23,981 nt of DNA from NCBI GenBank assembly GCA_964619725.1, contig CAZUFC010000101.1:6847-30827 (forward strand), written 5' to 3'. This DNA comes from an uncultured bacterium. GTDB taxonomy: Bacteria > CSSED10-310 > CAZUFC01. Position numbers and translations under genes: made by a program. Numbering within the stretch: position 1 is the first letter of the stretch; the number at the start of each line of letters is the position of its first letter. Shown here piece after piece: positions 549-23,264 of this stretch. The notes beneath the pieces are model-generated. The model was not told the origin of the DNA and did not search any database. It saw nothing but the letters and a program-made list of their open reading frames with translations.

Positions 549-604
549 TAACAATAATTAACGCAGTCCTTTGACGGATTGTGCCGTCCTTTAGGAGAAT
601 TCGA

Positions 605-2080
605 ATGAAAAACGCAAAAAATAACAAGATCAAAACGGGAATGCCGGGACTCGATCATGTGTTGGCGGGCGGTTTTCCTGCCGACCATATCTATCTTTTA
701 ACGGGACCCAGCGGTTCGGGCAAGACCACTTTCGGATTGCAGTTTTTAATTGAAGGCGCGCGCCGGGGCGACAAATCTCTTTATATCGGGACGTCGGAAT
801 TTCCCGAAGAGATCAGGGAGATAGGGAGGTCTCACGGCTGGAATTTAAGCGGAATAGAGCTTCGTTATCATGGAGGACTTGAAGCGCTGACGGGGAAGCC
901 GAAGCAGACGATGTTTCAACCGGTCGAGGTTGAGCTTCCCCGGACGATGGAGGCGCTGATGGCCATAGTGAATGAGGTCAATCCTGATCGTCTGGTTATA
1001 GATTCTTTGACGGAGATCAGGTTATTGTCCGGCAGGGAAAGCTGGTATCGTGACCAGTTGAAGGTCCTTCAGCGGCACTTTTCAGACAAGCCTTGCACGG
1101 TGTTGTTGACTGATCTTAACATAAATGAGCAGCCTGTAGTCAGAAGCATAGTGCACGGAGTGATAGAACTGGGGCAGACTTCGCCCGTTTACGGACCTGA
1201 CCGCCGTCGTTTGCGAGTCGCCAAGTTGCGGGGGACGTCTTATTGCACGGGTTATCATGATTTCACGATATGTAAGGGCGGACTGCGTATTTTCCCCAGG
1301 CTGATTGCGGCGGAACATCGACAACGCTTTAAACCGGAAATGGTAAGCAGCGGACTGCCTGAACTCGACAAGCTTCTGGGAGGGGGATTGGACCGGGGAA
1401 CGAGCACCCTGTTTGTGGGTCCGACCGGCACCGGCAAATCCACAATATTGACCCAATATGTGACGGCGGCAGCGCGTCGCGGCGAAAAATGCGCCATGTA
1501 TATCTTCGATGAAAGAATTCAGACTCTTTTTCAGCGTTCAGCCGGCTTGGGTATGGAGCTTGAAGAACATGTGAATTCAGGAACGGTAACGGTGTTGCAG
1601 GTCGATCCCGCTGAAATGACGCCGGGTGAATTCAGCACAAGGGTGATGAATGACGTGGAAAAGGGTGTGCAAATAATCGCCATCGACAGCTTGAACGGCT
1701 ACGCCTATGCCATGCCCGAGGAGCGAATGCTGGACGTTCATCTTCATGAGTTGCTGAGTTACCTCAACCGACAGGCCGTTACCTCACTCCAGGTCATGAC
1801 GCAGCATGGAATTTTTTCCTCCGCATCTGCCGCTTTTGACGTCAGTTATATTTCGGATACGGTTATTCTGATGCGGATGTTTGAATACAGGGGCGCCGTA
1901 CACAGGTCCATATCGGTTCATAAACGTCGAGCCGGCGACCATGAGAACACTATACGGGAATTCACGTTCAAAGAAGGATCAATACAGATCGGAAAACCTT
2001 TGACTCAATTTACAGGCGTAATTTCCGGAAATCCCCAGTTTCTGGGAGAAGAGCTGGAAGAGGCCGGAGGAAATAGTTGA
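605..2080 (+). CDS. kaiC: KaiC-like double-domain RecA-superfamily ATPase (KaiC/GvpD/RAD55 family)
   Basis: Two P-loops (GPSGSGKT, GPTGTGKS), two Walker B motifs (LVIDS, IAIDS), KLRG and KRR fingers. Start moved to ATG 605 because AGGAG lies just upstream. The symbol means kaiC-like, not a clock ortholog. Confidence 0.9.
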   Translation: MKNAKNNKIKTGMPGLDHVLAGGFPADHIYLLTGPSGSGKTTFGLQFLIEGARRGDKSLYIGTSEFPEEIREIGRSHGWNLSGIELRYHGGLEALTGKPKQTMFQPVEVELPRTMEALMAIVNEVNPDRLVIDSLTEIRLLSGRESWYRDQLKVLQRHFSDKPCTVLLTDLNINEQPVVRSIVHGVIELGQTSPVYGPDRRRLRVAKLRGTSYCTGYHDFTICKGGLRIFPRLIAAEHRQRFKPEMVSSGLPELDKLLGGGLDRGTSTLFVGPTGTGKSTILTQYVTAAARRGEKCAMYIFDERIQTLFQRSAGLGMELEEHVNSGTVTVLQVDPAEMTPGEFSTRVMNDVEKGVQIIAIDSLNGYAYAMPEERMLDVHLHELLSYLNRQAVTSLQVMTQHGIFSSASAAFDVSYISDTVILMRMFEYRGAVHRSISVHKRRAGDHENTIREFTFKEGSIQIGKPLTQFTGVISGNPQFLGEELEEAGGNS

Positions 2081-5031
2081 AAACGGACTCAACATCAGAA
2101 GATGCTCTTCAGGCGCTTATCCTGGCTTCCACTGAGGGCGATGCTGAAGCGCTGATCGATACGCTTTCTCAGGCAGGATTACCCGGCGAATCGTGTTCAT
2201 CAATGACTGACTTATGCAGGCGCATCGATGCGGGTTCCGGCCTGGCGATCATTGCCGGCGAAGAGCTTGATGACGATGGTCGAAGAAAACTCGAAGCAGC
2301 GCTGAATCGTCAACCCGATTGGGCTGATTTTCCCGTCATTCTCATGGTTGCGCGGGGCGGCGATCTCGGCGCCGGATGGTCTTTTCTGCAAAAAAGTGAT
2401 GCGGCGGCTCATACCCTCATCCTGGAGCGGCCGGTATTCAGGGCCGCTTTATTGAGCGCCGTTCGTTCGGCTCTCAGATCGCGACGAAGACAATATCAAG
2501 TGCGGGATGAATTGACGGAACGATGTCGAGTCGAACAGGCGCTTCGGGAAAGTGAAGAACGGTTGCGCCTGGCGGCTGAAGCAGCGGAATTCGGCGCTTA
2601 CGATGCCGATTACAGGTCAAATACGCTTTACTGGTCTCCTGAAACCAGAAGAATTCTCCATTATCCTCCTGACGTTCCGGCGCCTGCTCCGGGAAAAATC
2701 CCGGATTGCGTGCATCCGGATGATGTTAATGCAGTCAAAGACGTTTTCCGGCGTGCTTTTAATCCTGAAGGCGACGGTCAGGTGGATAACGAACATCGAA
2801 TAATCACGCCTGACGGAAAGGTTCGATGGCTTCACTTAAAAGGACGGGTTCTATTTGCAGGAGAAGGCAATAAACGCCGCCATGTCCGTTCCACAGGAAT
2901 AATAGTGGATATTACCGACCGAAAAGAGAAGGAACAGGTCATTCGAAATGCACAACGCTTCAGTGAAGCTCTGAATAGCGTTAATGCAACCCTCCATTCA
3001 AGCCTCGACGTCAATGAAATTATGCATCGCCTGATTCATGAAGGCAGCGCCGTGCTTGGTTCCGAAAGCGCTGCAGTTTCTCTGCAGAAATACGGCAAGT
3101 GGTTCGTCGAATATGTCAAAGGATTACCTGCCGAAGATTACATCGGCGCCGAATTGGTTGAGGAAGCCGAAAAGCACGCCTTTGCTGCAATAAAAACGAA
3201 ACAGCCGGTCGTCGTTTCCGATGCTTTTAACGACGAAAGATTCAACCCCGAACATTTGCGTAATCACAATATTAAATCCGTATTGGTAATGCCATTAATA
3301 CGAAGAAATGAAACCTTCGGCGTAATATTTTTCAACTACCATGCCGACAAGCATGAATTCAACGAAGCGGAAGTCCAATTCGCCCGGCAATTGGCTTCCA
3401 CGGCTTCAATTGCCTTTGAAAACAGCAGGCTTTTCGCTGAGCTCCAAGAAACCGGTAGAAAGCTCCAGAGGGCGCATGACGAACTCGAAGAAAAAGTAAA
3501 AGAACGCACCGCTGAACTGGCAGAAAGCGAAGAACGCTTCAGAGCGGCCCTGTCCAATGAAAATATTATTGTAACGCATGTCGATAAGGAACTCAGATAT
3601 ACCTGGGTGCATAACAGCCATCCCGATTTCCCTCCGGACAAGCTCATCGGAAAGAGGGACGATGAAGCGCTGGGCGAAAAAGAGGCTGCAGAGATAATGG
3701 AACTGAAACGGCGTGCGCTGGAAACTCAGAGGAATGTCAGAGGAGAGCTTTTATTTCAATTGTCGGACAGCGAAAAATGGTACGATTTTACGGCTGCGCC
3801 CCGTATGAATGCGGAGGGCGAACCTGCAGGCTTGACGACTGCGGCGATAGATATTACCGACCGCAAAAGACTGGAAACGCAACTGCTTGAAGCTCAAAAG
3901 CTGGAAGCCGTCGGACGCCTGGCGGGAGGCATCGCCCATGATTTCAATAATCGTACGCAGGTCATATTAACGTGCGCTCAAAAAATGCTTCGTAAAGACG
4001 ACCTTGACGAAATGCTGCAGAACAATCTGAAAATGATCGTCGAAGCGGGCGAAAAAGCTGCGGAACTGACCAACCAGCTTCTGGCATTCAGCCGTAAACA
4101 GGTCATGAGGATAGAAACGATCAATATCACCAACGCCGTCAAAGATATGCTGCCTATGATCGGGCGACTCCTCAGCGAAGAAATTAAAATAAAACTGTAT
4201 GCTCCCGGTAATCCCCTATACGTTCGAGCCGACCGGAGCAAACTCGAACAGGTATTAATGAACCTGGCCGTCAATGCCAGGGACGCAATGCCCAGAGGCG
4301 GCCGACTTACTATAACCATACGCGAATCAGGTCCGAAAAGGCTGACGAAACAGACAATTCCGCAGAATTGTGTTCTCCTGGAAGTTTCAGACACTGGATG
4401 CGGAATGGATGCGGAAATCGCTTCGCACGTATTCGAACCCTTCTTTACGACGAAACCGGAAGGAGAAGGAACAGGACTGGGACTGGCGACGACTTACGGA
4501 ATCATAAAACAGTCCGGCGGCGAAATAACCGTCGACAGCGAACCGGGATGCGGAACCCACTTCCGTATCTTCCTGCCGCTCATCGAACGGGAAGAAGCGA
4601 TTAAAACGATTGAAAGAGAAGAAGAAGAAGAAGAAGAAGAAGAAGAAATTCGACTGTCGACGCTCCGGATTCTTCTGGTAGAAGATGATGCCATGATAAG
4701 GTATGGTCTGGCGCTTGAGCTGGAAAACCAGGGAATGAAAATCATTCAGGCCGGAAATTACAGGGAAGCGATAGAAGCGGCCGAAAAACAGGATGAACCG
4801 ATAAACCTGCTTATCACAGACATGGTCCTCACGGATAAAGACGGTTCGGAAACAGCCAAAGGAGTCCTCGAACGGCACCCCAATGCCAGAATACTCTATA
4901 TCTCAGGCTACTCTGAATCACACATAGAAAAACGCTCCTTCAACTCATCCGCCGGCTTCCTCCAAAAACCTTTTTCCGTCGAAACCCTGACCGCCAAAAT
5001 AAAGGAAATGCTGACGAAAAGGGGAAACTGA
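2077..5031 (+). CDS. Cytoplasmic hybrid sensor histidine kinase (degenerate REC-like N-terminus, PAS, GAF, coiled coil, PAS, HisKA, HATPase, REC)
   Basis: HPDD and DITDRK PAS/PAC motifs; GAF region (SVLVMPLI); H-box AHDFNN; N-box NLAVNARDAM; G boxes DTGCGM and GTGLGL; REC motifs LLVEDD, LITD, KPF. The TTG start overlaps the kaiC stop. Confidence 0.93.
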   Translation: MKTDSTSEDALQALILASTEGDAEALIDTLSQAGLPGESCSSMTDLCRRIDAGSGLAIIAGEELDDDGRRKLEAALNRQPDWADFPVILMVARGGDLGAGWSFLQKSDAAAHTLILERPVFRAALLSAVRSALRSRRRQYQVRDELTERCRVEQALRESEERLRLAAEAAEFGAYDADYRSNTLYWSPETRRILHYPPDVPAPAPGKIPDCVHPDDVNAVKDVFRRAFNPEGDGQVDNEHRIITPDGKVRWLHLKGRVLFAGEGNKRRHVRSTGIIVDITDRKEKEQVIRNAQRFSEALNSVNATLHSSLDVNEIMHRLIHEGSAVLGSESAAVSLQKYGKWFVEYVKGLPAEDYIGAELVEEAEKHAFAAIKTKQPVVVSDAFNDERFNPEHLRNHNIKSVLVMPLIRRNETFGVIFFNYHADKHEFNEAEVQFARQLASTASIAFENSRLFAELQETGRKLQRAHDELEEKVKERTAELAESEERFRAALSNENIIVTHVDKELRYTWVHNSHPDFPPDKLIGKRDDEALGEKEAAEIMELKRRALETQRNVRGELLFQLSDSEKWYDFTAAPRMNAEGEPAGLTTAAIDITDRKRLETQLLEAQKLEAVGRLAGGIAHDFNNRTQVILTCAQKMLRKDDLDEMLQNNLKMIVEAGEKAAELTNQLLAFSRKQVMRIETINITNAVKDMLPMIGRLLSEEIKIKLYAPGNPLYVRADRSKLEQVLMNLAVNARDAMPRGGRLTITIRESGPKRLTKQTIPQNCVLLEVSDTGCGMDAEIASHVFEPFFTTKPEGEGTGLGLATTYGIIKQSGGEITVDSEPGCGTHFRIFLPLIEREEAIKTIEREEEEEEEEEEIRLSTLRILLVEDDAMIRYGLALELENQGMKIIQAGNYREAIEAAEKQDEPINLLITDMVLTDKDGSETAKGVLERHPNARILYISGYSESHIEKRSFNSSAGFLQKPFSVETLTAKIKEMLTKRGN
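4618..4647 (+). repeat. (GAA)10 trinucleotide repeat encoding a poly-Glu linker
   Basis: Ten consecutive gaa codons between the HATPase and REC domains. Confidence 0.95.
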
Positions 5032-8342: not shown

Positions 8343-9617
8343 ATGAATGGAGAATTTTTTAAATCGTCTGCAATATCAGGCCGGTCTGTAATCGACGTCC
8401 GGTCTGTCGCCGCATTCAATGGATGGAAGATGAATGAGCAGCAAAGAGGAGGTCATCTTCCCGGGGCCGTTTCTTTCCCTCTGAAATGGACAGATTTTGA
8501 CGGCTGGAAGAAAGTTTTGCAGGATAAAAACATAACGCCGAATGATGCGGTTATGCTGTATGGATATAATGATGGAGAGATGGAAACATTCAGCGAAAAA
8601 CTGATGGCAGCGGGTTACAGCGACATAGGTATACTCACAGGTTTCGGGGATTGGACTGAAAACAAAAGCATGCCTCTGGTCAGACTCGCAAAATATCAAC
8701 AACTCGTTTACCCGGAGTGGCTGCATGAGCTCATTGAAGGTCGATCTCCTCCAGGCTATGAAAACGATCATTATGTAATCGGACATGCCACGTATGGTTA
8801 TCGTGAAGACTACGAAGCGGGACATATTCCTGGAGCGGTTCATATCGACACGATAAGCCTGGAGGACCCGGAAACCTGGAATAGAAGGACTCCGGAGGAA
8901 CTGACGAAAGCGCTCCTGGACTGCGGGATAACTTCAGACACGACCGTCATAATGTATGGGAGGTTTTCCCATCCCAATAATCAGGACCCTTATCCCGGAA
9001 GGAAGGCGGGTCATCTGGCGGCAATGCGGTGCGCCGTCATCATGCTGTATGCCGGGGTAAAAGACGTCCGCATATTAAACGGAGGGCTGGCCGCCTGGAA
9101 AGAGGCCGGTTATGAGTTGTCCACGGAAGAGCCGGAAATTCGAAAATCCGACGATTTCGGCATTCAAATACCGGCTCATCCCGAATATATAATCGATACG
9201 CCCGAAGCGAAACGAATACTGGCATCGGACGACGGCGAACTCGTCAGCGTCAGAAGCTGGGACGAATACATCGGTAAAGTAAGCGGATACAACTACATCG
9301 AAAAACGGGGCCGCATACCCGGTTCGGTTTTCGGCAACTGCGGCAGCGATGCCTATCACATGGAAAACTACCGCAATATAGACCATACCATGAGACAGCA
9401 TGAAGAAGTCGCCCGGAACTGGGCCGAAAACGGCGTGATACCCGAAAAACGCATTGCCTTCTACTGCGGCACCGGATGGCGAGCCTCCGAAGCTTTTCTC
9501 AATGCCTATCTCATGGGCTGGCCGAATATTTCGATTTATGACGGAGGTTGGATGGAATGGAGCGGCAAATACAATAATGCTGTCGAAACAGGCATACCTG
9601 AATCTCAAACAAAGTAA
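8343..9617 (+). CDS. eanB: Triple-rhodanese sulfurtransferase, EanB-type anaerobic ergothioneine synthase (YnjE-like fold)
   Basis: Active-site loop FYCGTGWR; E-x7-YNY, then C, YH and the catalytic C at offsets +17, +22/+23 and +59 from the first Y, the spacing I recall for Chlorobium limicola EanB (E345/Y353/C370/Y375/H376/C412); YDGGWMEW; adjacent to a histidine methyltransferase; AAGGAG RBS. Confidence 0.88.
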   Translation: MNGEFFKSSAISGRSVIDVRSVAAFNGWKMNEQQRGGHLPGAVSFPLKWTDFDGWKKVLQDKNITPNDAVMLYGYNDGEMETFSEKLMAAGYSDIGILTGFGDWTENKSMPLVRLAKYQQLVYPEWLHELIEGRSPPGYENDHYVIGHATYGYREDYEAGHIPGAVHIDTISLEDPETWNRRTPEELTKALLDCGITSDTTVIMYGRFSHPNNQDPYPGRKAGHLAAMRCAVIMLYAGVKDVRILNGGLAAWKEAGYELSTEEPEIRKSDDFGIQIPAHPEYIIDTPEAKRILASDDGELVSVRSWDEYIGKVSGYNYIEKRGRIPGSVFGNCGSDAYHMENYRNIDHTMRQHEEVARNWAENGVIPEKRIAFYCGTGWRASEAFLNAYLMGWPNISIYDGGWMEWSGKYNNAVETGIPESQTK

Positions 9618-9629
9618 GGAGGATCCCAC

Positions 9630-10937
9630 ATGCCTGTCGTTATAGACAAACGTCTCGATTCAAATGAAGCGACCCGCCTGTTATATGAATTTAAAAATGA
9701 CGTCAAAAAAGGACTCGCAGCCGAACAAAAATGTATTCCCTCCAGATACCTGTACGACGATGAAGGCTCCAAACTCTTCCAGAAAATAATGGACCTGCCG
9801 GAATATTACCTCTTCAACGCTGAAAAGGAAATCATCGAAACATATTCCTCATTTCTGGCAGCAATGATGGGCACAGAAGCATTCAACCTCGCGGAACTGG
9901 GAGCAGGCGACGGAAGAAAAACGAAAATTCTCCTCGAATCTTTCGCTCAACATAACCTCGATTTCACTTTCACCGTCATCGACATATCCCGTAAAGCGCT
10001 GCAGGAATTCATGCTGAAAACAAATCAATGGAATAAAAATTGCCCCTTCAAATGCGTTAATGCCGATTACGCACACGGTCTGCAGCAGATACACAAACAA
10101 AGCGGCAGAAAAACAATGATACTTTTTCTCGGTTCAAGCATTGGAAATTTCTCCGCCCAGGAAGAAATATGTTTCCTCCGGGAATTAAGGACCAACATGG
10201 ATGAAAAGGACTACTTACTGATAGGTTTCGACGTCGCTTCCGATCCCCGGAAGATTATGGCCGCCTACGATGATGAAGCCGGCGTCACGGGAGAATTCAA
10301 CCTTAACCTGCTGAAGAGGATAAACCGTGAATTGAAGGCCAATTTTGATTTGAAAAGTTTCAGACATGCGCCCGTATATATTCCTGAAGGGCATTTCATG
10401 GAAAGTTACCTGGAAAGCATGACGGAACAGGAAGTTCACATAGATGAAATAGATATGACGGTTCATTTTTCTGCCGGCGAAAGCATCAAAACGGAAATAT
10501 CACGGAAATACACGCAACGAACCATCGGCAACCTCGCAGCCGGAACCGGTTTTAAAACAGAAGCCGATTTTTATGACCGTAAACGCAACTTTGTATTGAG
10601 TTTATGGCGGCCGGACGGTTGCCGTCAGGAAAATTTAAGGGAGGTGAAAAAAATGCAAGCTGTATGGCAAGATATAGTGTTGGCCGGGAGCGATGAAACT
10701 GAAGTAGTGGAGGGAAATCACTATTTTCCCCCGGAATCTGTTGACATGATAAACTTGCGGAAATCCGGAAATACTTACACATGTCCCTGGAAGGGCAAAG
10801 CGCATTATTACGATATAGTTGTGGACGGCGAAGTCAAAAAGGACGGCGCCTGGATCATTCCCGAACCCAAGGAGGCAGCAAAGAATATACAAGGATTTGT
10901 AGCTTTCTCGAAGGGCGTTGAGGTAACGAGCAACTGA
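9630..10937 (+). CDS. egtD: L-histidine N-alpha-trimethyltransferase (EgtD/EanA family) fused in frame to a C-terminal DUF427 domain
   Basis: KCIPSRYLYDDEGSKLFQKIMDLPEYY, ELGAGDGRKT, GSSIGNF, AAYDDEAGVT, FNLNLL, TEISRKY; then MQAVW...VVEGNHYFPPES...CPWKGKAHYY...AW from residue 342. Confidence 0.9.
   Translation: MPVVIDKRLDSNEATRLLYEFKNDVKKGLAAEQKCIPSRYLYDDEGSKLFQKIMDLPEYYLFNAEKEIIETYSSFLAAMMGTEAFNLAELGAGDGRKTKILLESFAQHNLDFTFTVIDISRKALQEFMLKTNQWNKNCPFKCVNADYAHGLQQIHKQSGRKTMILFLGSSIGNFSAQEEICFLRELRTNMDEKDYLLIGFDVASDPRKIMAAYDDEAGVTGEFNLNLLKRINRELKANFDLKSFRHAPVYIPEGHFMESYLESMTEQEVHIDEIDMTVHFSAGESIKTEISRKYTQRTIGNLAAGTGFKTEADFYDRKRNFVLSLWRPDGCRQENLREVKKMQAVWQDIVLAGSDETEVVEGNHYFPPESVDMINLRKSGNTYTCPWKGKAHYYDIVVDGEVKKDGAWIIPEPKEAAKNIQGFVAFSKGVEVTSN
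10638..10655 (+). promoter_or_regulatory. Internal ribosome-binding site and ATG for the DUF427 domain
   Basis: agggaggtg-aaaaaa-ATG(10653), in frame with the egtD ORF and at the natural DUF427 N-terminus. Confidence 0.75.
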
Positions 10938-15629: not shown

Positions 15630-16163
15630 CTCCTTTTCCTTCTTTTGTTACTTTTTTTTCCTTCCCGTCGACAACCGAAGGATTCTCCTTTTCCAAGCCA
15701 GTCGCCGGCTCAGACAGACACGCCCACAGCGACGCCAAGGCCTTCGAACACACCCACAAGCCTACCCCCTGCAACATCAACTCCAACCTATACATCTACG
15801 GCGACGCACACGCCGGCAATAACCCTGACGCCGACTGCCACGCTCATCCCTACAAACACTCCGGCCTGTGTTCACGACGGAGACGTGAATGATGACGGAG
15901 TCCTTACGCCCCAAGATGCGCAACTCGCGATTTGGATCATATTAGGAATTTATGTTCCAGCGTTCCATGAAAATTGCGCTGCAGATTGCAACGGCTGCGG
16001 CGAAGTGACGGCAGACGATGCACAATGCGTTTTCGCTGCCTACCTGGATACGGGATGCTCCTGTGTTGACGCGGTTAACTCACCGACGACTGCACATGAT
16101 CCGGCCCGGACGCCGAAGCGCGCCCCCGCAACGGCTACACAGGACCAAAGCCCTTCGGATTAA
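15630..16163 (+). pseudogene. Pro/Thr-linker plus Cys-flanked dockerin-like (double EF-hand) protein, apparently lacking an intact N-terminus
   Basis: TPT-rich linker; GDVNDDGVLTPQDAQ and ADCNGCGEVTADDAQ repeats; hydrophobic LLFLLLLLFF directly after an in-frame TGA at 15627; no clear RBS or start. Confidence 0.6.
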
Positions 16164-17018: not shown

Positions 17019-17819
17019 TCAGGAATCGTAACCGAAAGTAACGGAATCGACGTTTCCAAGCAGATTGACTGACCCCGCTTCAAGCAGTCCGGCCCAGAAT
17101 TTCAGATTCGAGGCGCTTCCTGCGCCTGCAGGCCATTGGAAAGCCAGAATTACGTCATTAAAGTCCATATCCAGCATCAAAGTCTGAAAATCCAGAGCCT
17201 GGGTCCATCCGGGATAAAACCAGTATTCACCGTAAACGTCAAGGATAACATACAATTCTACAGAGATGGATACTCCGCTGTACTCGATTGATATGATCAG
17301 CTCAAATGGATCGTTCGCTCCGAAATCCGTTTGATTCAGCATCAGGTCCAGAACCGGTTCGTCCGCCCGAGGAGTCTCCGTAGGCGCCGGCGTGGTAGCA
17401 GGATCGGTAGGAACCGGAGTCGGCGTATCAGTCGCCGCAAATGTGGGCGTCGCTGTCGGCGCAGGCGTCACGGTCGCTTCCGGCGGATGACTCTCCGGAT
17501 CACCGGGATTCGTCACATCAGCCGGATTCCCCGGATCAGGCTGACCCTCCTGCCACGTTCCTTCCGCATCTAGCAACTCTTCCCCGTTCGTCCAGTCATC
17601 CTGGTCTGAATCCTGGTTCGCCAGCGCCGTCGTCCAGGTATTCCCCGCCGCTAAAAAATCATTAAAAAAATTGTTGCCCATTCCATGACATGTGTCGCAT
17701 GAAAATACTTCGCCGTTGGGTATCCTTGAATTGAACTCAGAATATCCCCACACGCCGGTTGGCGCAAATAGCGCCATAATCATTAGTGTCATCAATTTTC
17801 GTAGTTTTTTGCCTGACAT
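17019..17819 (-). CDS. Secreted protein: signal peptide, temptin-like domain with CxxCH, Pro/Thr linker, conserved C-terminal domain
   Basis: Signal peptide MSGKKLRKL...GVWG; SRIPNG...CDTCH...FLAAGNTWTTALANQDSDQDDWTNGEEL...W..G...NPGDPESHP; TPT linker; GAGGAG RBS. Confidence 0.85.
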   Translation of the reverse strand: MSGKKLRKLMTLMIMALFAPTGVWGYSEFNSRIPNGEVFSCDTCHGMGNNFFNDFLAAGNTWTTALANQDSDQDDWTNGEELLDAEGTWQEGQPDPGNPADVTNPGDPESHPPEATVTPAPTATPTFAATDTPTPVPTDPATTPAPTETPRADEPVLDLMLNQTDFGANDPFELIISIEYSGVSISVELYVILDVYGEYWFYPGWTQALDFQTLMLDMDFNDVILAFQWPAGAGSASNLKFWAGLLEAGSVNLLGNVDSVTFGYDS

Positions 17820-18152
17820 CGTTTCTCCTCTGTGTTTTCAGGTTTTCATCCATTTGAAAACCTGATTATAAGTTTTCCTGATTGATAAACAATTGCGGTT
17901 ACTCCTTTTCCGCTGAAATAAATTAAAATTCGCCGCAATAGCACACAACCTTTTCTTTTGATTCATAATCTCTTTCGTAAGATTCATATTGTTTCGACTT
18001 GAGAACCTCAAGTCGTCGCCAATCTCTGAAAGGACGAAGAAAACATAAACCACTAATTGTTAAGCAAAAAGTATGCCGTCATCAGAATGCGGCTTTTTTC
18101 GCATAACTTCTATTGGAATGGGGATCAGGACCCTTCGGAAACCTGGGATAGC

Positions 18153-18187
18153 TCAAACCGGGATTACACTTTTTTCAAAACGTCTGA
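18153..18187 (+). repeat. Degenerate core copy of the intergenic repeat family
   Basis: tcaaaccgggattacacttttttcaaaacgtctgac versus tcaaaccggggttacgcttctttcaaaacttttgac at 5032. Confidence 0.8.
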
Positions 18188-18393
18188 CTGAGTGAATCAA
18201 TTAAAAAATCGGCATATAAAATTCCCCTTTAGCAAGGGATGTCGATTTAATCGAAAAAAAGATGTTCGGCACGCAACATAGTGTGGACTTCATGATTGAT
18301 ACCGCTGCATGCTTTGACGGCATTGCGCCATTTTCGATTAAATCGACAGGCTTAGCAAAGGCGGGGACGCGATCTTATTTTCTAAAAGACTCT

Positions 18394-18428
18394 TTGACAA
18401 TCGAACTTTATATGGTACCATATAAAGT
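18394..18428 (+). promoter_or_regulatory. TA promoter with a perfect 24-bp palindromic operator
   Basis: TTGACA 18394-18399; TACCAT 18416-18421; palindrome ACTTTATATGGT/ACCATATAAAGT 18405-18428; GGGAGG RBS follows. Confidence 0.85.
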
Positions 18429-18443
18429 CGGGAGGATTGGATT

Positions 18444-18719
18444 ATGAGCATCGAAAACGATATACGCCCCATCACATATCTTAAAACAAGGACGGCTGAA
18501 TTACTCAGGCAGATTAACGAAACCCGTCGACCGGTAATAATCACACAGAACGGAGAACCCCGGGCCGTTCTTCAAGACCCTCAAAGCTACGAGAGCATGA
18601 AAAACGCTCTTGGGCTTTTAAAGTTGATTTCCCAGGGCGAAGAGGATATACGTAAAGGGAAAGTCAAGCCGCAGGCAGAAGTGTTCAAAAAAATCGAAGA
18701 GGTATTCGGCGAAAAATGA
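18444..18719 (+). CDS. Phd/YefM family antitoxin
   Basis: IRPITYLK...LLRQINETRRPVIITQNGEPRAVL. Confidence 0.92.
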   Translation: MSIENDIRPITYLKTRTAELLRQINETRRPVIITQNGEPRAVLQDPQSYESMKNALGLLKLISQGEEDIRKGKVKPQAEVFKKIEEVFGEK

Positions 18720-19057
18720 AAGCTGAATTCGACGTTCTTTGGACTGCAGCAGCAGAGGATGATCTTCACAGAATCATTGAATTTATTTCCGTTGAACAAC
18801 CAGAAGCGGCAATGGAAATTCTGAAGAGGATCAAGGAAGCGGCAGGGGAACTGGACCAATTTCCCGGAACAGGGCTTATCGTTTCAGCATTGTTGATGCA
18901 AGGTATTTCAAGATATCGAGAAATGGTAATCAAACCCTGGAGGCTGATTTACAGAATCCAGGATAGAAAAGTGTATGTCGTTACGTTAATCGACGGGCGT
19001 CGAAACGTTGAAGACATATTGCTGTCCCGCCTTTTGAATAATGCCGAAATCGCTTGA
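18716..19057 (+). CDS. RelE/ParE family toxin
   Basis: VLWTAAAEDDLHRIIEFI...LDQFPGTG...YREMVIKPWRLIYRI...IDGRRN; ATGA overlap with the antitoxin. Confidence 0.9.
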   Translation: MKAEFDVLWTAAAEDDLHRIIEFISVEQPEAAMEILKRIKEAAGELDQFPGTGLIVSALLMQGISRYREMVIKPWRLIYRIQDRKVYVVTLIDGRRNVEDILLSRLLNNAEIA

Positions 19058-19100
19058 AACATTTCACAATTTTGTATCAGTCGATGTCAGGAGATGTGAA

Positions 19101-19117
19101 TTTCGGGGCTGATCAAA
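19101..19117 (+). repeat. Partial core copy of the intergenic repeat family
   Basis: tttcggggctgatcaaa is the exact reverse complement of 11451-11467. Confidence 0.7.
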
Positions 19118-19326
19118 ACGCCCATCTTTGGGAATCCTGCGGCATCCACTGATTCGCAAAAATTGCAACCTGCAGTTGTCGGCCCCAGATTTTTTTCAAT
19201 GATACATTTGCTTTCTGAGCTTTCAATGCATATTCTGAAAAACATGCTGGGGTGAGTAATTCATCTCGGGTGTATATATTTGATTTTTTTGGGAGCTTAA
19301 AATTATATACGGGGAGGACAAGAAAA

Positions 19327-20958
19327 TTGAAAAGGTGTTCATGGTTGTTTGCTGCAATAATGATTTTTCCGGTCGTATGTCAAGCTGTTCCTTCATCCAT
19401 TAATTATCAGGGGAAAATAGAGAGCGGCGGAGTAGAATTCAATGGTACGGGTTATTTCAAATTCGCCATTGTTGATGATCCTGCATCGCCGGTGCAGACT
19501 TTTTGGTCGAACGACGGAGCGTCGATTGCGGGGTCGGAGCCTGTCGCCTCTGTCCAGGTGGAAGTAAACGAAGGACTGTACAATGTGATTCTGGGTCAGA
19601 GTCCCCAGGAACCCATTGAAGCATCGGTCTTTTCAAACGAACCGCTTTATCTTCGGGTATGGTTCGACGACGGATCGACGGGTTTTGAGCATCTGTCTCC
19701 CGACCGGCAGATAGTATCGTTTGGATACGCAATGAGGGCAGCGAATGCGGATAACGCCGACACGTTAGACGATTTAGACTCAGAAAATTTCGCGCCTTTC
19801 ACACACGATCATGATGCGGAATATTATACACAGGCCTACATCGATGCACTGGAAGATCGCATAGAGAATCTTGAATTGCAGGCAGCGGACCATGAATCTC
19901 GTCTGGCTTATCTGGAATCTCTTCATGCCTGCGAAGACGGCGTGATGAACGGCGACGAAACGGACGTGGACTGCGGCGGCCCCGTATGCGAGCCGTGCGG
20001 ACCGGGAGCTGATTGCATCAACAACAGCGACTGTCAGAGCGGCAGTTGCATCGCGGGAACATGCGGCGAGCCCTCATGCGACGACGGTATTCTGAACGGT
20101 GACGAAACGGACGTGGACTGCGGAGGAGAAGATTGCGAGCCCTGTCAGGACGGAGCCGGGTGCGAATATGGCGGCGACTGCCAGAGCGGCGTATGCGAAG
20201 AGGGAACCTGCATAGCTGCTTCTTGCGACGATGGTGTTCAGAATGGCGATGAGACGGATGTGGACTGCGGCGGCGAGGATTGCGAACCCTGCCAGGAGGG
20301 CGCCGGCTGCGAGTATGGCGGGGACTGCCAGAGCGGCGTTTGCATCGATGATATATGCCAGGCTCCCTCATGCACGGACGAGGTGATAAACGGCGATGAA
20401 ACCGATGTAGACTGCGGAGGACAGGATTGCCCGCCATGCCAGACCGGCGCCGGTTGTATGATCGACAGCGACTGCCAGAGCGGCGTGTGCATCGGCGGAG
20501 TTTGCCAGGCCCCCTCATGCACAGACGCCGTGCAGAACGGCGATGAAACGGATGTGGATTGCGGAGGCGAAGACTGCCAACCCTGCCAGGACGGCGCCGG
20601 TTGCATGATCGACAGCGACTGCCAGAGCGAAGTCTGTATGGGAGGAGTCTGCCAGGAGCCCTCATGCACAGACGGAGTCCAGAACGGCGATGAAACGGAC
20701 GTCGACTGCGGAGGACAGGATTGCCCGCCATGCCAGACCGGCGAACATTGCGAAGAAGGCGGAGACTGCGTATCCGGCATATGTTCGGAAGGGTATTGCG
20801 TCACAGCCGCTTGCGTTGACGACGTCATGAACGGCGATGAAACGGACGTGGACTGCGGAGGTTCCGAGTGTCCGCCGTGCCAGGACGGACAAAGCTGCAT
20901 CGAAGATGATGACTGCCAGAGCGGAATATGCATCGATAACGTCTGTCAACCGTTATAA
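19327..20958 (+). CDS. Secreted or surface protein: signal peptide, VPxxINYQG N-terminal domain, coiled coil, seven 49-aa Cys-rich repeats
   Basis: GGGGAGG RBS then TTG 19327 gives MKRCSWLFAAIMIFPVVCQA, a signal peptide; heptads YIDALEDRIENLELQAADHESRLAYLE; NGDETDVDCGG repeats. Confidence 0.88.
   Translation: MKRCSWLFAAIMIFPVVCQAVPSSINYQGKIESGGVEFNGTGYFKFAIVDDPASPVQTFWSNDGASIAGSEPVASVQVEVNEGLYNVILGQSPQEPIEASVFSNEPLYLRVWFDDGSTGFEHLSPDRQIVSFGYAMRAANADNADTLDDLDSENFAPFTHDHDAEYYTQAYIDALEDRIENLELQAADHESRLAYLESLHACEDGVMNGDETDVDCGGPVCEPCGPGADCINNSDCQSGSCIAGTCGEPSCDDGILNGDETDVDCGGEDCEPCQDGAGCEYGGDCQSGVCEEGTCIAASCDDGVQNGDETDVDCGGEDCEPCQEGAGCEYGGDCQSGVCIDDICQAPSCTDEVINGDETDVDCGGQDCPPCQTGAGCMIDSDCQSGVCIGGVCQAPSCTDAVQNGDETDVDCGGEDCQPCQDGAGCMIDSDCQSEVCMGGVCQEPSCTDGVQNGDETDVDCGGQDCPPCQTGEHCEEGGDCVSGICSEGYCVTAACVDDVMNGDETDVDCGGSECPPCQDGQSCIEDDDCQSGICIDNVCQPL
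19930..20955 (+). repeat. Seven coding tandem repeats of 147 bp (49 aa, 8 Cys each)
   Basis: C-x-D-x3-NGDETDVDCGG-x2-C-x-PC-x2-G-x2-C-x4-DC-x-S-x2-C-x4-C occurs seven times. Confidence 0.97.
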
Positions 20959-21071
20959 AATTGTAACTGCCCAAGGACCCCGGTTCATTTTGATTTGACG
21001 CCCTTCATCGGTCCCTGAAAACAGTAAGCATTACAGAGGGAATAAGCCCGCCTGGACCTTTCCGACGACCC

Positions 21072-21196
21072 CTCTTTTTCGCGTGAATTCGTGAAATTTC
21101 GCGTATCAAAAAAAATCCAACCAGGCATCGGCAAATGATTCAACCATTTCTGAAGAATTTTTATCCGCGAAATCACGAGAATTTACGCAAAAAGAG
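21072..21196. repeat. Imperfect inverted repeat (about 31-bp arms)
   Basis: ctctttttcgcgtgaattcgtgaaatttcgcg (21072-21103) versus cgcgaaatcacgagaatttacgcaaaaagag (21166-21196). Confidence 0.65.
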
Positions 21197-21551
21197 AAGA
21201 GCATAATGATTAAATTGTAAGTTTGGCGGCGTCGTTACGGGCAAAGGGTTCAATCTCACCTTATTGAAACTTCTTTTTTCCGGAAAGCTCCTGGTAATTA
21301 CTGAATTGAAGACACTGCGATTTGGATACAATGCAATCTTCGATACCCCCAGTGAAAATGCAAAAATGAATCACAGCGAAACAGCGAATCGCACGAATCT
21401 CACGAATGAGAGGATCGATATTGGCGTAAATCGCACATATTCCGGGTTTTCTGCAGAACGAATATCCGGGAAAAATTTCACCTGGGGTGAGGAAGCCGGA
21501 ACGGACCCGGAAACCACAACATATGTCATGAGCGACAGATAATTTATGGCG

Positions 21552-21936
21552 CTGATCAAACCGGGGTTATACTATTTCATAAAACACTTGAATAATTGAA
21601 ATCCCCTGTTTTTTTCATCAAGGGCCGTTTGTTTCGGGATCGGGGTCGCAACAAAATAATTACGGGGAGATATGTGTTGTCCAGATCATATTTTGGCGTT
21701 GATCAAAAATGGCCATATCAGGGTTACAATTTCTCAGTTTGAATCCTTCGTGCTCGTGCTCAGTGCAGCGGTAATCGTAATCCAAACATAGGTCTGATCT
21801 GTAAAGTCGTTTGAAAGGAAAGGAGGGCAATCTTTTGAATCGATCGATTACGATTACGAGCACGAGCGCCGTTCCGCTGAGTACGAAAGTTCTTTTTGAG
21901 TATCGAGATCACAATTTGTAACCCCTGTTTGATCAG
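21552..21936. mobile_element. MITE-like composite element of the intergenic repeat family (about 385 bp with terminal inverted repeats)
   Basis: Left ctgatcaaaccggggttat (21552-21570), right gtaacccctgtttgatcag (21918-21936); internal modules shared with 16821, 167 and 5168; no coding capacity; no target-site duplication seen. Confidence 0.6.
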
Positions 21937-22226
21937 TCCCCATATTTTCAAAAATTCTTAGTGCATGTCCACAAACTTGAATCTAGATTCAAAATTTAAT
22001 GCTGGACAGCCGCTGATTAGAACTATTGCTAAATTTTTTAGAATTTTTCTGAACTACATCATCTCACCACAGGACACCAATATTCTTCATTAAGACTTAT
22101 TAAATAATTATTTATACTACCTTTTGATCATTATCCTGCCGTGGATGGCATAATACTCGCACCAAAAAGGATGAAATATCCTGGACCGTTTGAACCGGTT
22201 CATACAAGCCCAGAAGGGAGCAATCG

Positions 22227-23264
22227 ATGAAAAATTTATTGAGCCTTAGCTTAGGATTGATTCTGCTCGTGAGCATTTCCACGATCGGCAATGCTGAGGA
22301 GTATAAGGTTTATTCGAAGGATGGCTGGTCGGCGACATTGCCGGCGCCGGAAAAGGTTCCGGAAACGAATAGAGCGCCTTCCAACGGATACTGGACGCCT
22401 GTTTTTCAGGACGGATTCGAATTGTATTGGCCGTATGACTGGTATATTTATACGGAATCGGGCGCCGCCGACTGCTATTGGGGCACCGTCAGTTGTCGCT
22501 CATGGGACGGCTCCTGGAGCGCACACTGTGCGAATGACGGTTCGGCGGCCCCGGTGACTGCTTGCGACGGCTACGTCGACGACATGGCGGCCTGGATGGA
22601 GTTTGGACCGTTCGATATCTCCAACGCCACGGCGGGTTACATAACATTCTACACCTGGCGCATGCTGGAAGATCAACACGACAAATTCTTTTACTCCGTT
22701 TCGATCGACGGTGTAGACTTTTACGGCACGGAAGTCAGCTCAGACACATCGGGATGGGAAAACGTAAGTCAGCCTTTCTCCTCAGTACCAATACTGGGTA
22801 ACGTCCTCGGCTCAAACGCGGTATGGATCGCATTCGGGTTCTCCAGCGACGGGACCATCGTGGACGGCGAAGGCGCTTACCTCGACAATGTCGAGGTCTG
22901 GATCGAATCGAACACACCTGGTAGGGTCCGTCTTGTCATGCCTGACACTTACTTCACACCCGGCGACTTTGTGTGGCTGGACGCCTGGTACGCAGAAGCG
23001 ACCAATCCTTCTCAATTGCCCCTGTTCGTCATTCTTGAAGCATACGGGTCTTATTATATGGGACCCTCCTTTTCAACCGGAATGGATTATTATTCGGTCA
23101 ATCCTTCGCAGAACTTCGACCTCATCTCCCCGATATCCAACTTTTACTGGCCCAGCGGCGCCGGCATCGGCTACGGCATAAAATGGTACGCGGCATTGAC
23201 CGATACCGCCGTCACCACCGTCCGAAGCAACATAGCAACCTGGGAATTCGATTTCGGCAACTAG
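22227..23264 (+). CDS. Secreted protein: signal peptide, MAM/InhA-like beta-sandwich domain, conserved C-terminal domain
   Basis: Signal peptide ending GNA; FQDGFE...W...GPFDIS...SIDG...VWIAFGFSSD...GAYLDNV pattern; C-terminal domain homologous to that of 17019-17819; GGGAG RBS. Confidence 0.85.
   Translation: MKNLLSLSLGLILLVSISTIGNAEEYKVYSKDGWSATLPAPEKVPETNRAPSNGYWTPVFQDGFELYWPYDWYIYTESGAADCYWGTVSCRSWDGSWSAHCANDGSAAPVTACDGYVDDMAAWMEFGPFDISNATAGYITFYTWRMLEDQHDKFFYSVSIDGVDFYGTEVSSDTSGWENVSQPFSSVPILGNVLGSNAVWIAFGFSSDGTIVDGEGAYLDNVEVWIESNTPGRVRLVMPDTYFTPGDFVWLDAWYAEATNPSQLPLFVILEAYGSYYMGPSFSTGMDYYSVNPSQNFDLISPISNFYWPSGAGIGYGIKWYAALTDTAVTTVRSNIATWEFDFGN

Follow-up and report, generated by a model that had tools for sequence, protein, structure and literature searches.

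Two secreted proteins with a common terminal domain

The stretch of DNA analyzed here (the window; 23,981 nucleotides of contig CAZUFC010000101.1, contig C101 in our numbering, assembly GCA_964619725.1) belongs to an uncultured bacterium of the CSSED10-310 lineage, whose genome (hereafter the source genome) is a 9.17-Mb draft of 344 contigs, 91% complete and 6.5% contaminated. Two genes of the window encode proteins, P0001 and P0002, that bear unrelated cargo and end in a common domain of about 112 residues, and this terminal domain is the subject of the present analysis.

The P0001 gene (17019..17819, minus strand) encodes a protein of 266 aa, which comprises a signal-peptide-like N-terminus (approximately residues 1-25; 17745..17819), a Temptin_C-like cargo domain with a CxxCH motif (residues 24-106; 17502..17750; PF24784, E 1.1e-13, 51.9 bits), a Pro/Thr-rich linker read from the sequence (approximately residues 107-152; 17364..17501) and the terminal domain (residues 156-265; 17025..17354), which finishes one residue before the stop. 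The P0002 gene (22227..23264, plus strand) encodes a protein of 345 aa with a signal-peptide-like N-terminus (approximately residues 1-23; 22227..22295), a cargo of no known family and, joined to the cargo without a Pro/Thr linker, the terminal domain (residues 233-344; 22923..23258), also ending one residue before the stop. The borders of both domains were derived from BLASTP, MAFFT alignment and the family profile, and the P0002 domain was the sequence used for fold modeling. No significant Pfam match was obtained for the P0002 cargo, the best one being InhA-like MAM at a sub-threshold E of 0.044. In both proteins a basic N-terminal portion is followed by a hydrophobic one, and both satisfy, in addition to inspection of the sequence, a crude signal-peptide rule (a start codon, a basic residue, then 11 uncharged residues with a mean hydropathy of at least 2.0).

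The C-termini of the two proteins matched each other in BLASTP (E 2e-9, 28% identity over 78 residues) and were aligned by MAFFT over approximately 112 columns, including all four blocks that had been singled out in the original prediction; outside the C-termini BLASTP found nothing similar between P0001 and P0002. A profile built from these two sequences alone produced 150 scored matches out of 263 candidates in the source genome, with E from 1.6e-62 to 1.6e-12, so the likeness of the two domains is far beyond chance. Neither C-terminus has a transmembrane or hydrophobic helix or a basic tail. The features on which the original prediction was founded, namely signal-peptide-like starts, unrelated cargo, alignable ends, a Pro/Thr linker in one of the proteins and the absence of a terminal transmembrane helix and a basic tail in both, were thus all reproduced by the analysis of ORFs (open reading frames), Pfam and BLASTP.

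The domain family in the source genome

Altogether, 17,798 six-frame ORFs of at least 80 aa were called in the source genome, and hmmsearch, iterated three times to convergence, detected 218 copies of the terminal domain in 217 of them, these counts being approximate since six-frame ORFs of a draft genome of the above completeness and contamination were used. The size of the family agrees with the many paralogues that had been expected. The domain is located within 5 residues of the C-terminus in 203 of the 218 copies (the tail behind it consisting of 0-4 residues), at a distance of 6-15 residues in 7, of 16-40 residues in 3, and beyond 40 residues in 5. Host proteins vary in length from 90 to 2016 aa with a median of 708 aa. 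A signal-peptide-like start was found in 178 of 208 family ORFs versus 1242 of 3254 other ORFs of at least 300 aa, and because the crude rule catches membrane proteins as well, this contrast between the family and the background weighs more than the absolute counts. The expectation that the domain would always be C-terminal and always reside on signal-peptide proteins therefore holds for the great majority of copies, but not without exception: two copies are situated directly behind the signal peptide (residues 29-150 of a 910-aa protein and residues 29-137 of an 867-aa protein), one protein has, besides its C-terminal copy, an internal one with a Pro/Thr linker behind it, and two further copies are internal. 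Internal positions, whose high frequency had been named as an argument against a terminal tag, are rare. The 40 residues that precede the domain consist of Pro, Thr and Ser by at least 50% in 104 of 201 members, the whole-protein mean being 21.6%.

Two family members deserve a separate mention. P0061, at first sight a three-copy protein, comprises two half-domains besides one complete copy and is apparently a chimeric gene call. An ORF of 131 aa on another contig (C23:14674-15069, minus strand) lacks both signal peptide and cargo, is 60% identical to the P0002 domain and has also a few residues upstream of the domain in common with P0002; it is probably a truncated paralogue.

No meaningful match at E≤1 was found for the terminal domains of P0001, P0002 and 34 aligned family members in Pfam or NCBIfam; in particular, CARDB (PF07705), dockerin type I (PF00404), PPC (pre-peptidase C-terminal domain) and SLH were absent from the Pfam matches of the 34 members. 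The profile search against PDB sequences gave at best colicin M with E 1.6, and the ESM Atlas feature search returned only 'hypothetical protein' clusters with the best score of 0.93. The AlphaFold2 model of the P0002 domain, calculated with the alignment of 34 copies, had a mean pLDDT of 96.7 and a pTM of 0.87, and contained eight strands and no helix. We are confident in the prediction that the terminal domain folds as an acidic eight-strand immunoglobulin (Ig)-like beta-sandwich of about 112 residues. In a Foldseek search against PDB the best neighbour of the model was the CARDB domain 3idu (E 7.5e-4, TM 0.54), accompanied by RbmA (TM 0.65), the porphyran-binding carbohydrate-binding module (CBM) 8wae (E 2.4e-3), RhoGDI, Der p 2 and macroglobulin (MG) domains. 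The second fold search (VIA) listed Ig-like domains of dextranase (Z 9.2 and 8.6), PKD (Z 8.5), CARDB 3idu (Z 8.1), complement/macroglobulin MG domains (Z 7.7-8.4) and the Wzt carbohydrate-binding domain (Z 7.6). Since, by the notes of the latter tool, any Ig-like sandwich reaches such values, we read these neighbours as those of a generic Ig-like sandwich, and the claim that the domain matches no characterized one is sustained by the Pfam, NCBIfam and PDB searches.

The most conserved columns over the 218 copies are N24, L38, P48, W50, F74, W76, P77, F88 and F109. According to the secondary structure of the model, P48, W50, F74, W76 and P77 are located at strand ends or in loops and may possibly constitute a binding site. 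The median isoelectric point (pI) of the domain is 4.05 and its net charge is -13; the pI of the cargo is about 4.1 versus a median of 6.3 for other ORFs of the source genome, and the tagged proteins carry 9-10 net negative charges per 100 aa. Being as acidic as its cargo, the domain displays the composition of the extracellular protein parts of this organism. A strongly acidic exoproteome would fit a saline or alkaline habitat combined with a normal cytoplasm.

The cargo was analyzed by a Pfam scan of 60 members of the source genome, 55 of them taken at random and 5 chosen for their odd domain placement; for 24 of them all, Pfam recognized no family. Peptidases were represented by C25 with propeptide (three proteins), M14 (two), S8, C1, C13, M28, M6, S15, neprosin and a C39-like one. 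Other enzymes included PAD_porph (Porphyromonas-type peptidylarginine deiminase), GH18, alpha-amylase, GHL10 with amidase, calcineurin-type and 5'-nucleotidase domains, an endonuclease/exonuclease/phosphatase-family protein and FGE-sulfatase proteins, while the adhesin-like cargo consisted of FG-GAP (three proteins), beta-helix/PMP-type (five) and one lamin-tail-domain protein. Public relatives bear similar kinds of cargo. The tagged proteins make up a set of secreted hydrolases and adhesins. In the FGE-sulfatase (SUMF1-type) proteins C153:3826-6558 (minus strand) and C179:651-2945 (plus strand), loci L032 and L035, the domain is N-terminal or lies between two FGE-type regions. Genes of FGE-sulfatases and sulfatases without the tag are found repeatedly beside genes of the domain family.

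Distribution, known C-terminal tags and genomic surroundings

Ten of the 13 other genomes of the same phylum hold from 57 to more than 113 domain matches each, and the remaining three (G001, G002 and G004, 87-96% complete) have none; no match at E≤1e-5 was detected in 27 genomes of other phyla. Public homologues are named candidate division CSSED10-310 in NCBI. A library of 1.84 billion cluster representatives yielded 2,459 domain matches at E≤1e-3 and 2,106 at E≤1e-10, and 196 of 204 public proteins (P0001 and P0002 being among the 204) end no more than 5 residues past the domain. In a broad sample of 251 genomes, relatives of the control genome G040, only two CSSED10-310 genomes and three others were matched at E≤1e-3. 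In the latter three, weaker copies of the domain (E≤0.01) numbered 23 (G053), 23 (G222) and 4 (G057). Full-length relatives of one of the G222 domain proteins are titled 'Candidatus Coatesbacteria', and proteins from other phyla are related to its cargo part only. Among 24 loci of these three genomes, 17 extend for no more than 11 residues beyond the match, 3 show only a partial match close to the end, and 4 continue for 184-434 residues past the domain; of the three upstream regions that were read (L162, L174 and L169), those of L162 and L174 place the domain right behind a signal-peptide-like stretch. The divergent copies belong to no Pfam family, giving only sub-threshold hints of CARDB, MG2 and A2M_BRD (E 0.03-0.12), with CARDB PF07705 at E 0.11-0.12 in 2 of the 13 copies scanned. 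The domain was originally regarded as lineage-specific. This view is in agreement with its presence in 10 of 13 genomes of the phylum and in none of the 27 genomes of other phyla, but has to be widened by the divergent relatives in Ca. Coatesbacteria and in one further genome (G057).

As for known C-terminal tags, the closest resemblance is to the type A C-terminal domains (CTDs) of the type IX secretion system (T9SS) of Bacteroidota and allied phyla, which are likewise beta-sandwiches at the very C-termini of signal-peptide proteins that number from tens to hundreds in a genome, with a similar cargo (C25 with propeptide, PAD, M14, S8 and adhesins). Six genomes of other phyla (G015, G017, G024, G029, G040 and G047) served as positive controls and gave from 62 to at least 77 matches each to Por_Secre_tail (PF18962). 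The same model found nothing in the source genome and in 11 of its 13 relatives, with one weak match in G012 and 11 matches in G013. The latter genome (69% complete, 3% contamination), the only relative with clear Por_Secre_tail matches (best E 9.7e-10), also contains 91 copies of our domain, being either a contaminated bin or a genome with both tags. SprA (TIGR04189) was found in none of the source genome, G003 and G007, while G017 and G040, used as controls, scored 357.6 and 592.7 bits; PorV (NF033710) was missing from G003 and G007 and had a single match with E 0.0086 in the source genome, versus 9 and 25 matches in the same controls. CHU_C (PF13585, T9SS type B) gave no matches in G003 and G007 as compared with 52 and 42 in the controls; in the source genome it had three weak internal matches in ORFs of 3012-4489 aa, none of which belongs to the domain family. 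The GldM model was silent even in the controls and is therefore uninformative on T9SS. An hhalign comparison of the 34-copy alignment with 30 control CTDs (from G017, G029 and G040) ended with a probability of 1.2% over 8 aligned columns. No T9SS CTD was recognized among the best 50 rows of both fold searches, although absence from such a list does not exclude the fold. The two kinds of domain differ also in length (about 112 residues versus 75 positions in the PF18962 (TIGR04183) model), in charge (pI 4.05 versus 9.4 for the basic control CTDs) and in placement, as our domain often stands on a Pro/Thr stalk and is sometimes N-terminal or internal. On the basis of the PF18962, SprA, PorV, CHU_C and hhalign results, we reject the assignment of the domain to T9SS CTDs.

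PEP-CTERM and IPTL-CTERM signals are composed of a short motif, a transmembrane helix and a basic tail, and are processed by an enzyme of the exosortase family. Our domain resembles them in tagging a large secreted set at the C-terminus after a Pro/Thr-rich stretch; it differs in being a folded soluble module of 112 residues, which ends in a beta strand and has neither the helix nor the basic tail. With dockerins and SLH it has in common the layout of a terminal linker-joined module, possible at either end, on many enzymes of one organism, but no relation in sequence or fold, and no partner module or envelope ligand was found for it. CARDB (PF07705) and macroglobulin MG are its best fold neighbours and the source of sub-threshold hints in the Coatesbacteria-type copies; however, no match of the domain reaches any Pfam threshold, and we know of no CARDB or MG domains serving as high-copy terminal tags. 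Sequence, profile and end-structure tests thus agree with the initial statement that the domain is unlike the T9SS, PEP-CTERM-type and SLH tags.

The source genome does possess a second class of C-terminal tags. Approximately 203 ORFs close with P-[IV]-P-[AST]..G, a transmembrane helix and a Lys/Arg tail, in this order, and in 113 of them the motif is preceded by a Pro/Thr/Ser-rich stretch; there is no overlap of these ORFs with the domain family. The class is exemplified by C140:910-6060 and C92:16848-21464 (both on the minus strand) and includes proteins of 4,000-8,470 aa. Against NCBIfam the tails of the source genome gave only sub-threshold matches (midcut_by_XrtH). A gene of the exosortase family is present in all 14 genomes of the phylum. 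Among the 54 ORFs of at least 2000 aa in the source genome, most of the largest belong to the anchor class and just one bears the domain. In the domain-free genome G001, four of the five C25 peptidases with readable C-termini have at their end a short motif with a hydrophobic helix and a basic tail behind it, and one C25 tail matches IPTL-CTERM (24.4 bits versus the cut-off of 20.5).

The cargo of both classes was compared after removal of the tags by an all-against-all BLAST (199 domain and 172 anchor cargoes). Nine cargo clusters mix the two classes, comprising 78 of the 199 domain cargoes and 60 of the 172 anchor cargoes, and identity between the best-matching cargoes of different class is 55-68% over 830-1056 residues. 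In the three cross-class pairs examined, one of them a pair of S8 peptidases, similarity stops at the Pro/Thr linker; the domain concludes one paralogue, and its counterpart has a longer Pro/Thr stalk and a helix-type anchor. The domain, then, occupies on close paralogues the same slot as the exosortase-type C-terminal membrane anchor. Bacterial surface proteins are known to include cargo families that can bear one or another C-terminal anchor.

GspD secretins scoring over the curated cut-off were found in the source genome, G003 and G007 (two in each), in the 2.6-Mb genome G006 (one) and also in the domain-free G001 (two). The 871 neighbours of the family genes of the source genome were clustered, and the recurrent clusters comprised beta-helix, collagen-like and TPR proteins, sigma-54 activators, radical SAM proteins, sulfatases, ABC transporters, TonB-dependent receptors, GT2, FGE-sulfatase and a PilT/GspE-type ATPase. 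From the secretins and TonB receptors it follows that an outer membrane is present, as is a general route for folded proteins, whether a genome has the domain or lacks it.

Several other genes of the window are of separate interest. Between the P0001 and P0002 genes lies a pair of a Phd/YefM antitoxin and a ParE toxin (18444-19057, plus strand). The 568-aa signal-peptide protein encoded at 19252-20958 (plus strand) has no Pfam match, and about eight tandem Cys-rich repeats, roughly 48 residues each, make up its C-terminal two thirds; nowhere else in the window is G+C as high as in this region (0.60). At 15645-16163 (plus strand), in an ORF that is perhaps the distal part of a longer gene, a dockerin type I-like segment (PF00404, E 7.5e-5, 23.3 bits versus the cut-off of 22.9) comes after a Pro/Thr-rich stretch. 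A triple-rhodanese protein adjoins a fusion of Methyltransf_33 (histidine-specific methyltransferase) with DUF427 at 8343-10937 (plus strand), the fusion being presumably an ergothioneine-type EgtD gene, and a ferric-reductase-like flavoprotein and a cytochrome c are encoded downstream of this pair. Finally, at 581-5031 (plus strand) a KaiC-like double ATPase precedes a hybrid histidine kinase of PAS-GAF-PAS type that includes a receiver domain, the stop and start codons overlapping.

Possible role of the domain

With moderate confidence we consider the domain to be a swappable terminal surface-address or anchor module, which binds a common ligand at the cell surface or in the envelope matrix. 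The tagged proteins would be exported across the inner membrane by Sec and pass the outer one by a general route (type II secretins are present); the domain would then hold them at the surface or in the envelope matrix via a ligand common to all of them, which could be an envelope glycan or a surface protein, and would in this way do non-covalently what the exosortase-type signal achieves by a covalent or membrane anchor. We lean to an anchor or address rather than to a secretion signal because copies of the domain are also found at the mature N-terminus and because it is exchanged with the exosortase-type anchor; with its stalks and non-C-terminal copies, the domain behaves as a module for which a free C-terminus is dispensable. 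A number of points weigh against this interpretation. Gene neighbourhoods (871 neighbours) revealed no dedicated partner but only generic large families, and a scan of five giant anchor-class proteins showed FG-GAP, beta-helix, CARDB and CarboxypepD_reg and no receptor-like repeat, so that neither approach provided a ligand or partner. The fold neighbours, being generic, indicate no particular ligand; type II secretion of the tagged proteins is assumed; the family counts are approximate, as stated above; and the strict end position (93-96% within 5 residues) along with the gingipain, PAD and M14 cargo is the pattern of T9SS-like export. Of the originally proposed secretion or surface-attachment tag, the terminal tag is supported, an anchor being favoured over a signal, and the search for the machinery was negative.

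The T9SS-like pattern favours the main alternative, a rather improbable one, according to which the domain is an export signal for an undescribed outer-membrane translocon, comparable to the T9SS CTD, and may subsequently be removed or exchanged for an anchor. It accounts for the end position of 203 of the 218 copies in the source genome and of 196 of the 204 public proteins, for cargo like that of T9SS (C25 with propeptide, PAD_porph, M14), for copy numbers of 57 to more than 200 per genome, in the range of Por_Secre_tail in the controls (62 to at least 77), and for the lack of T9SS tails where the domain abounds. An export signal is, however, less in keeping with the mature N-terminal and internal copies, with the long Pro/Thr stalk before half of the copies and with the swap for a membrane-anchor signal on paralogous cargo; moreover, no translocon candidate emerged, SprA and PorV not being found in the source genome, G003 and G007 (apart from the above PorV match at E 0.0086), and type II secretins are present anyway. 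In an equally improbable, more inclusive form, the domain could be the tag of an undescribed outer-membrane export-and-attachment system that replaces T9SS in CSSED10-310 and, divergently, in Ca. Coatesbacteria, serving gingipain-like peptidases and hundreds of further surface proteins, with a translocon or receptor not recognizably related to SprA and PorV.

The position of a beta-sandwich on a Pro/Thr linker at the protein end, typical of CBMs, could also mean that the domain binds a substrate or particle, aiming hydrolases at one abundant polymer or mineral surface of the habitat. The fold neighbours 8wae (E 2.4e-3), Wzt (Z 7.6) and the Ig-like domain of dextranase (Z 9.2) and the conserved aromatic residues W50, F74, W76 and F88 are in line with this idea, which we nevertheless find unlikely, as the occurrence of one module on peptidases, nucleotidases, amylase, chitinase, deiminase and adhesins is better explained by a common address, the module is exchanged for a cell-anchor signal, and its fold matches are at the level of any Ig-like sandwich. 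Far less credible is a dockerin-like module that would plug enzymes into giant scaffolds held by the exosortase-type anchor: the domain is indeed borne by enzymes, and most of the largest of the 54 ORFs of at least 2000 aa are of the anchor class with only one bearing the domain, but the five giants scanned lack a repeated receptor-like module of unknown family, and the domain is all-beta with no dockerin similarity or Pfam match. We give equally little credence to a C-terminal pro-domain or intramolecular chaperone similar to PPC, aiding folding or keeping enzymes inactive until cleaved; it would suit the C-terminal location on many secreted peptidases, but not the presence of the domain on adhesins, nucleotidases, glycosidases and small non-enzyme proteins such as P0001, nor the flexible linker separating it from the cargo, nor the lack of a PPC match in Pfam.

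A terminal tag common to a secreted proteome is a known kind of arrangement; the domain family and its lineage are new, as would be its partner. The domain is not mentioned in the genome paper on CSSED10-310 (PMC8248873), and no published description of it was found among the papers listed in searches on CSSED10-310, on Coatesbacteria C-termini, and on C-terminal sorting domains or T9SS in candidate phyla, supplementary files lying outside this search. About 3% of the genes of the source genome end in the domain (217 of roughly 6,300 by a crude gene count), and this uncatalogued end domain, common to such a share of genes, is therefore the chief label of the proteins secreted or exposed at the surface in a phylum without a cultured member. 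If our reading is true, a model of the domain would let annotators recognize the exoproteome of these lineages (2,459 public cluster representatives), and its exchange with the exosortase-type anchor on near-identical cargo would be a natural experiment on the role of each tag. If a dedicated partner exists, the domain would belong to a new surface-sorting or attachment system of diderm bacteria without T9SS.

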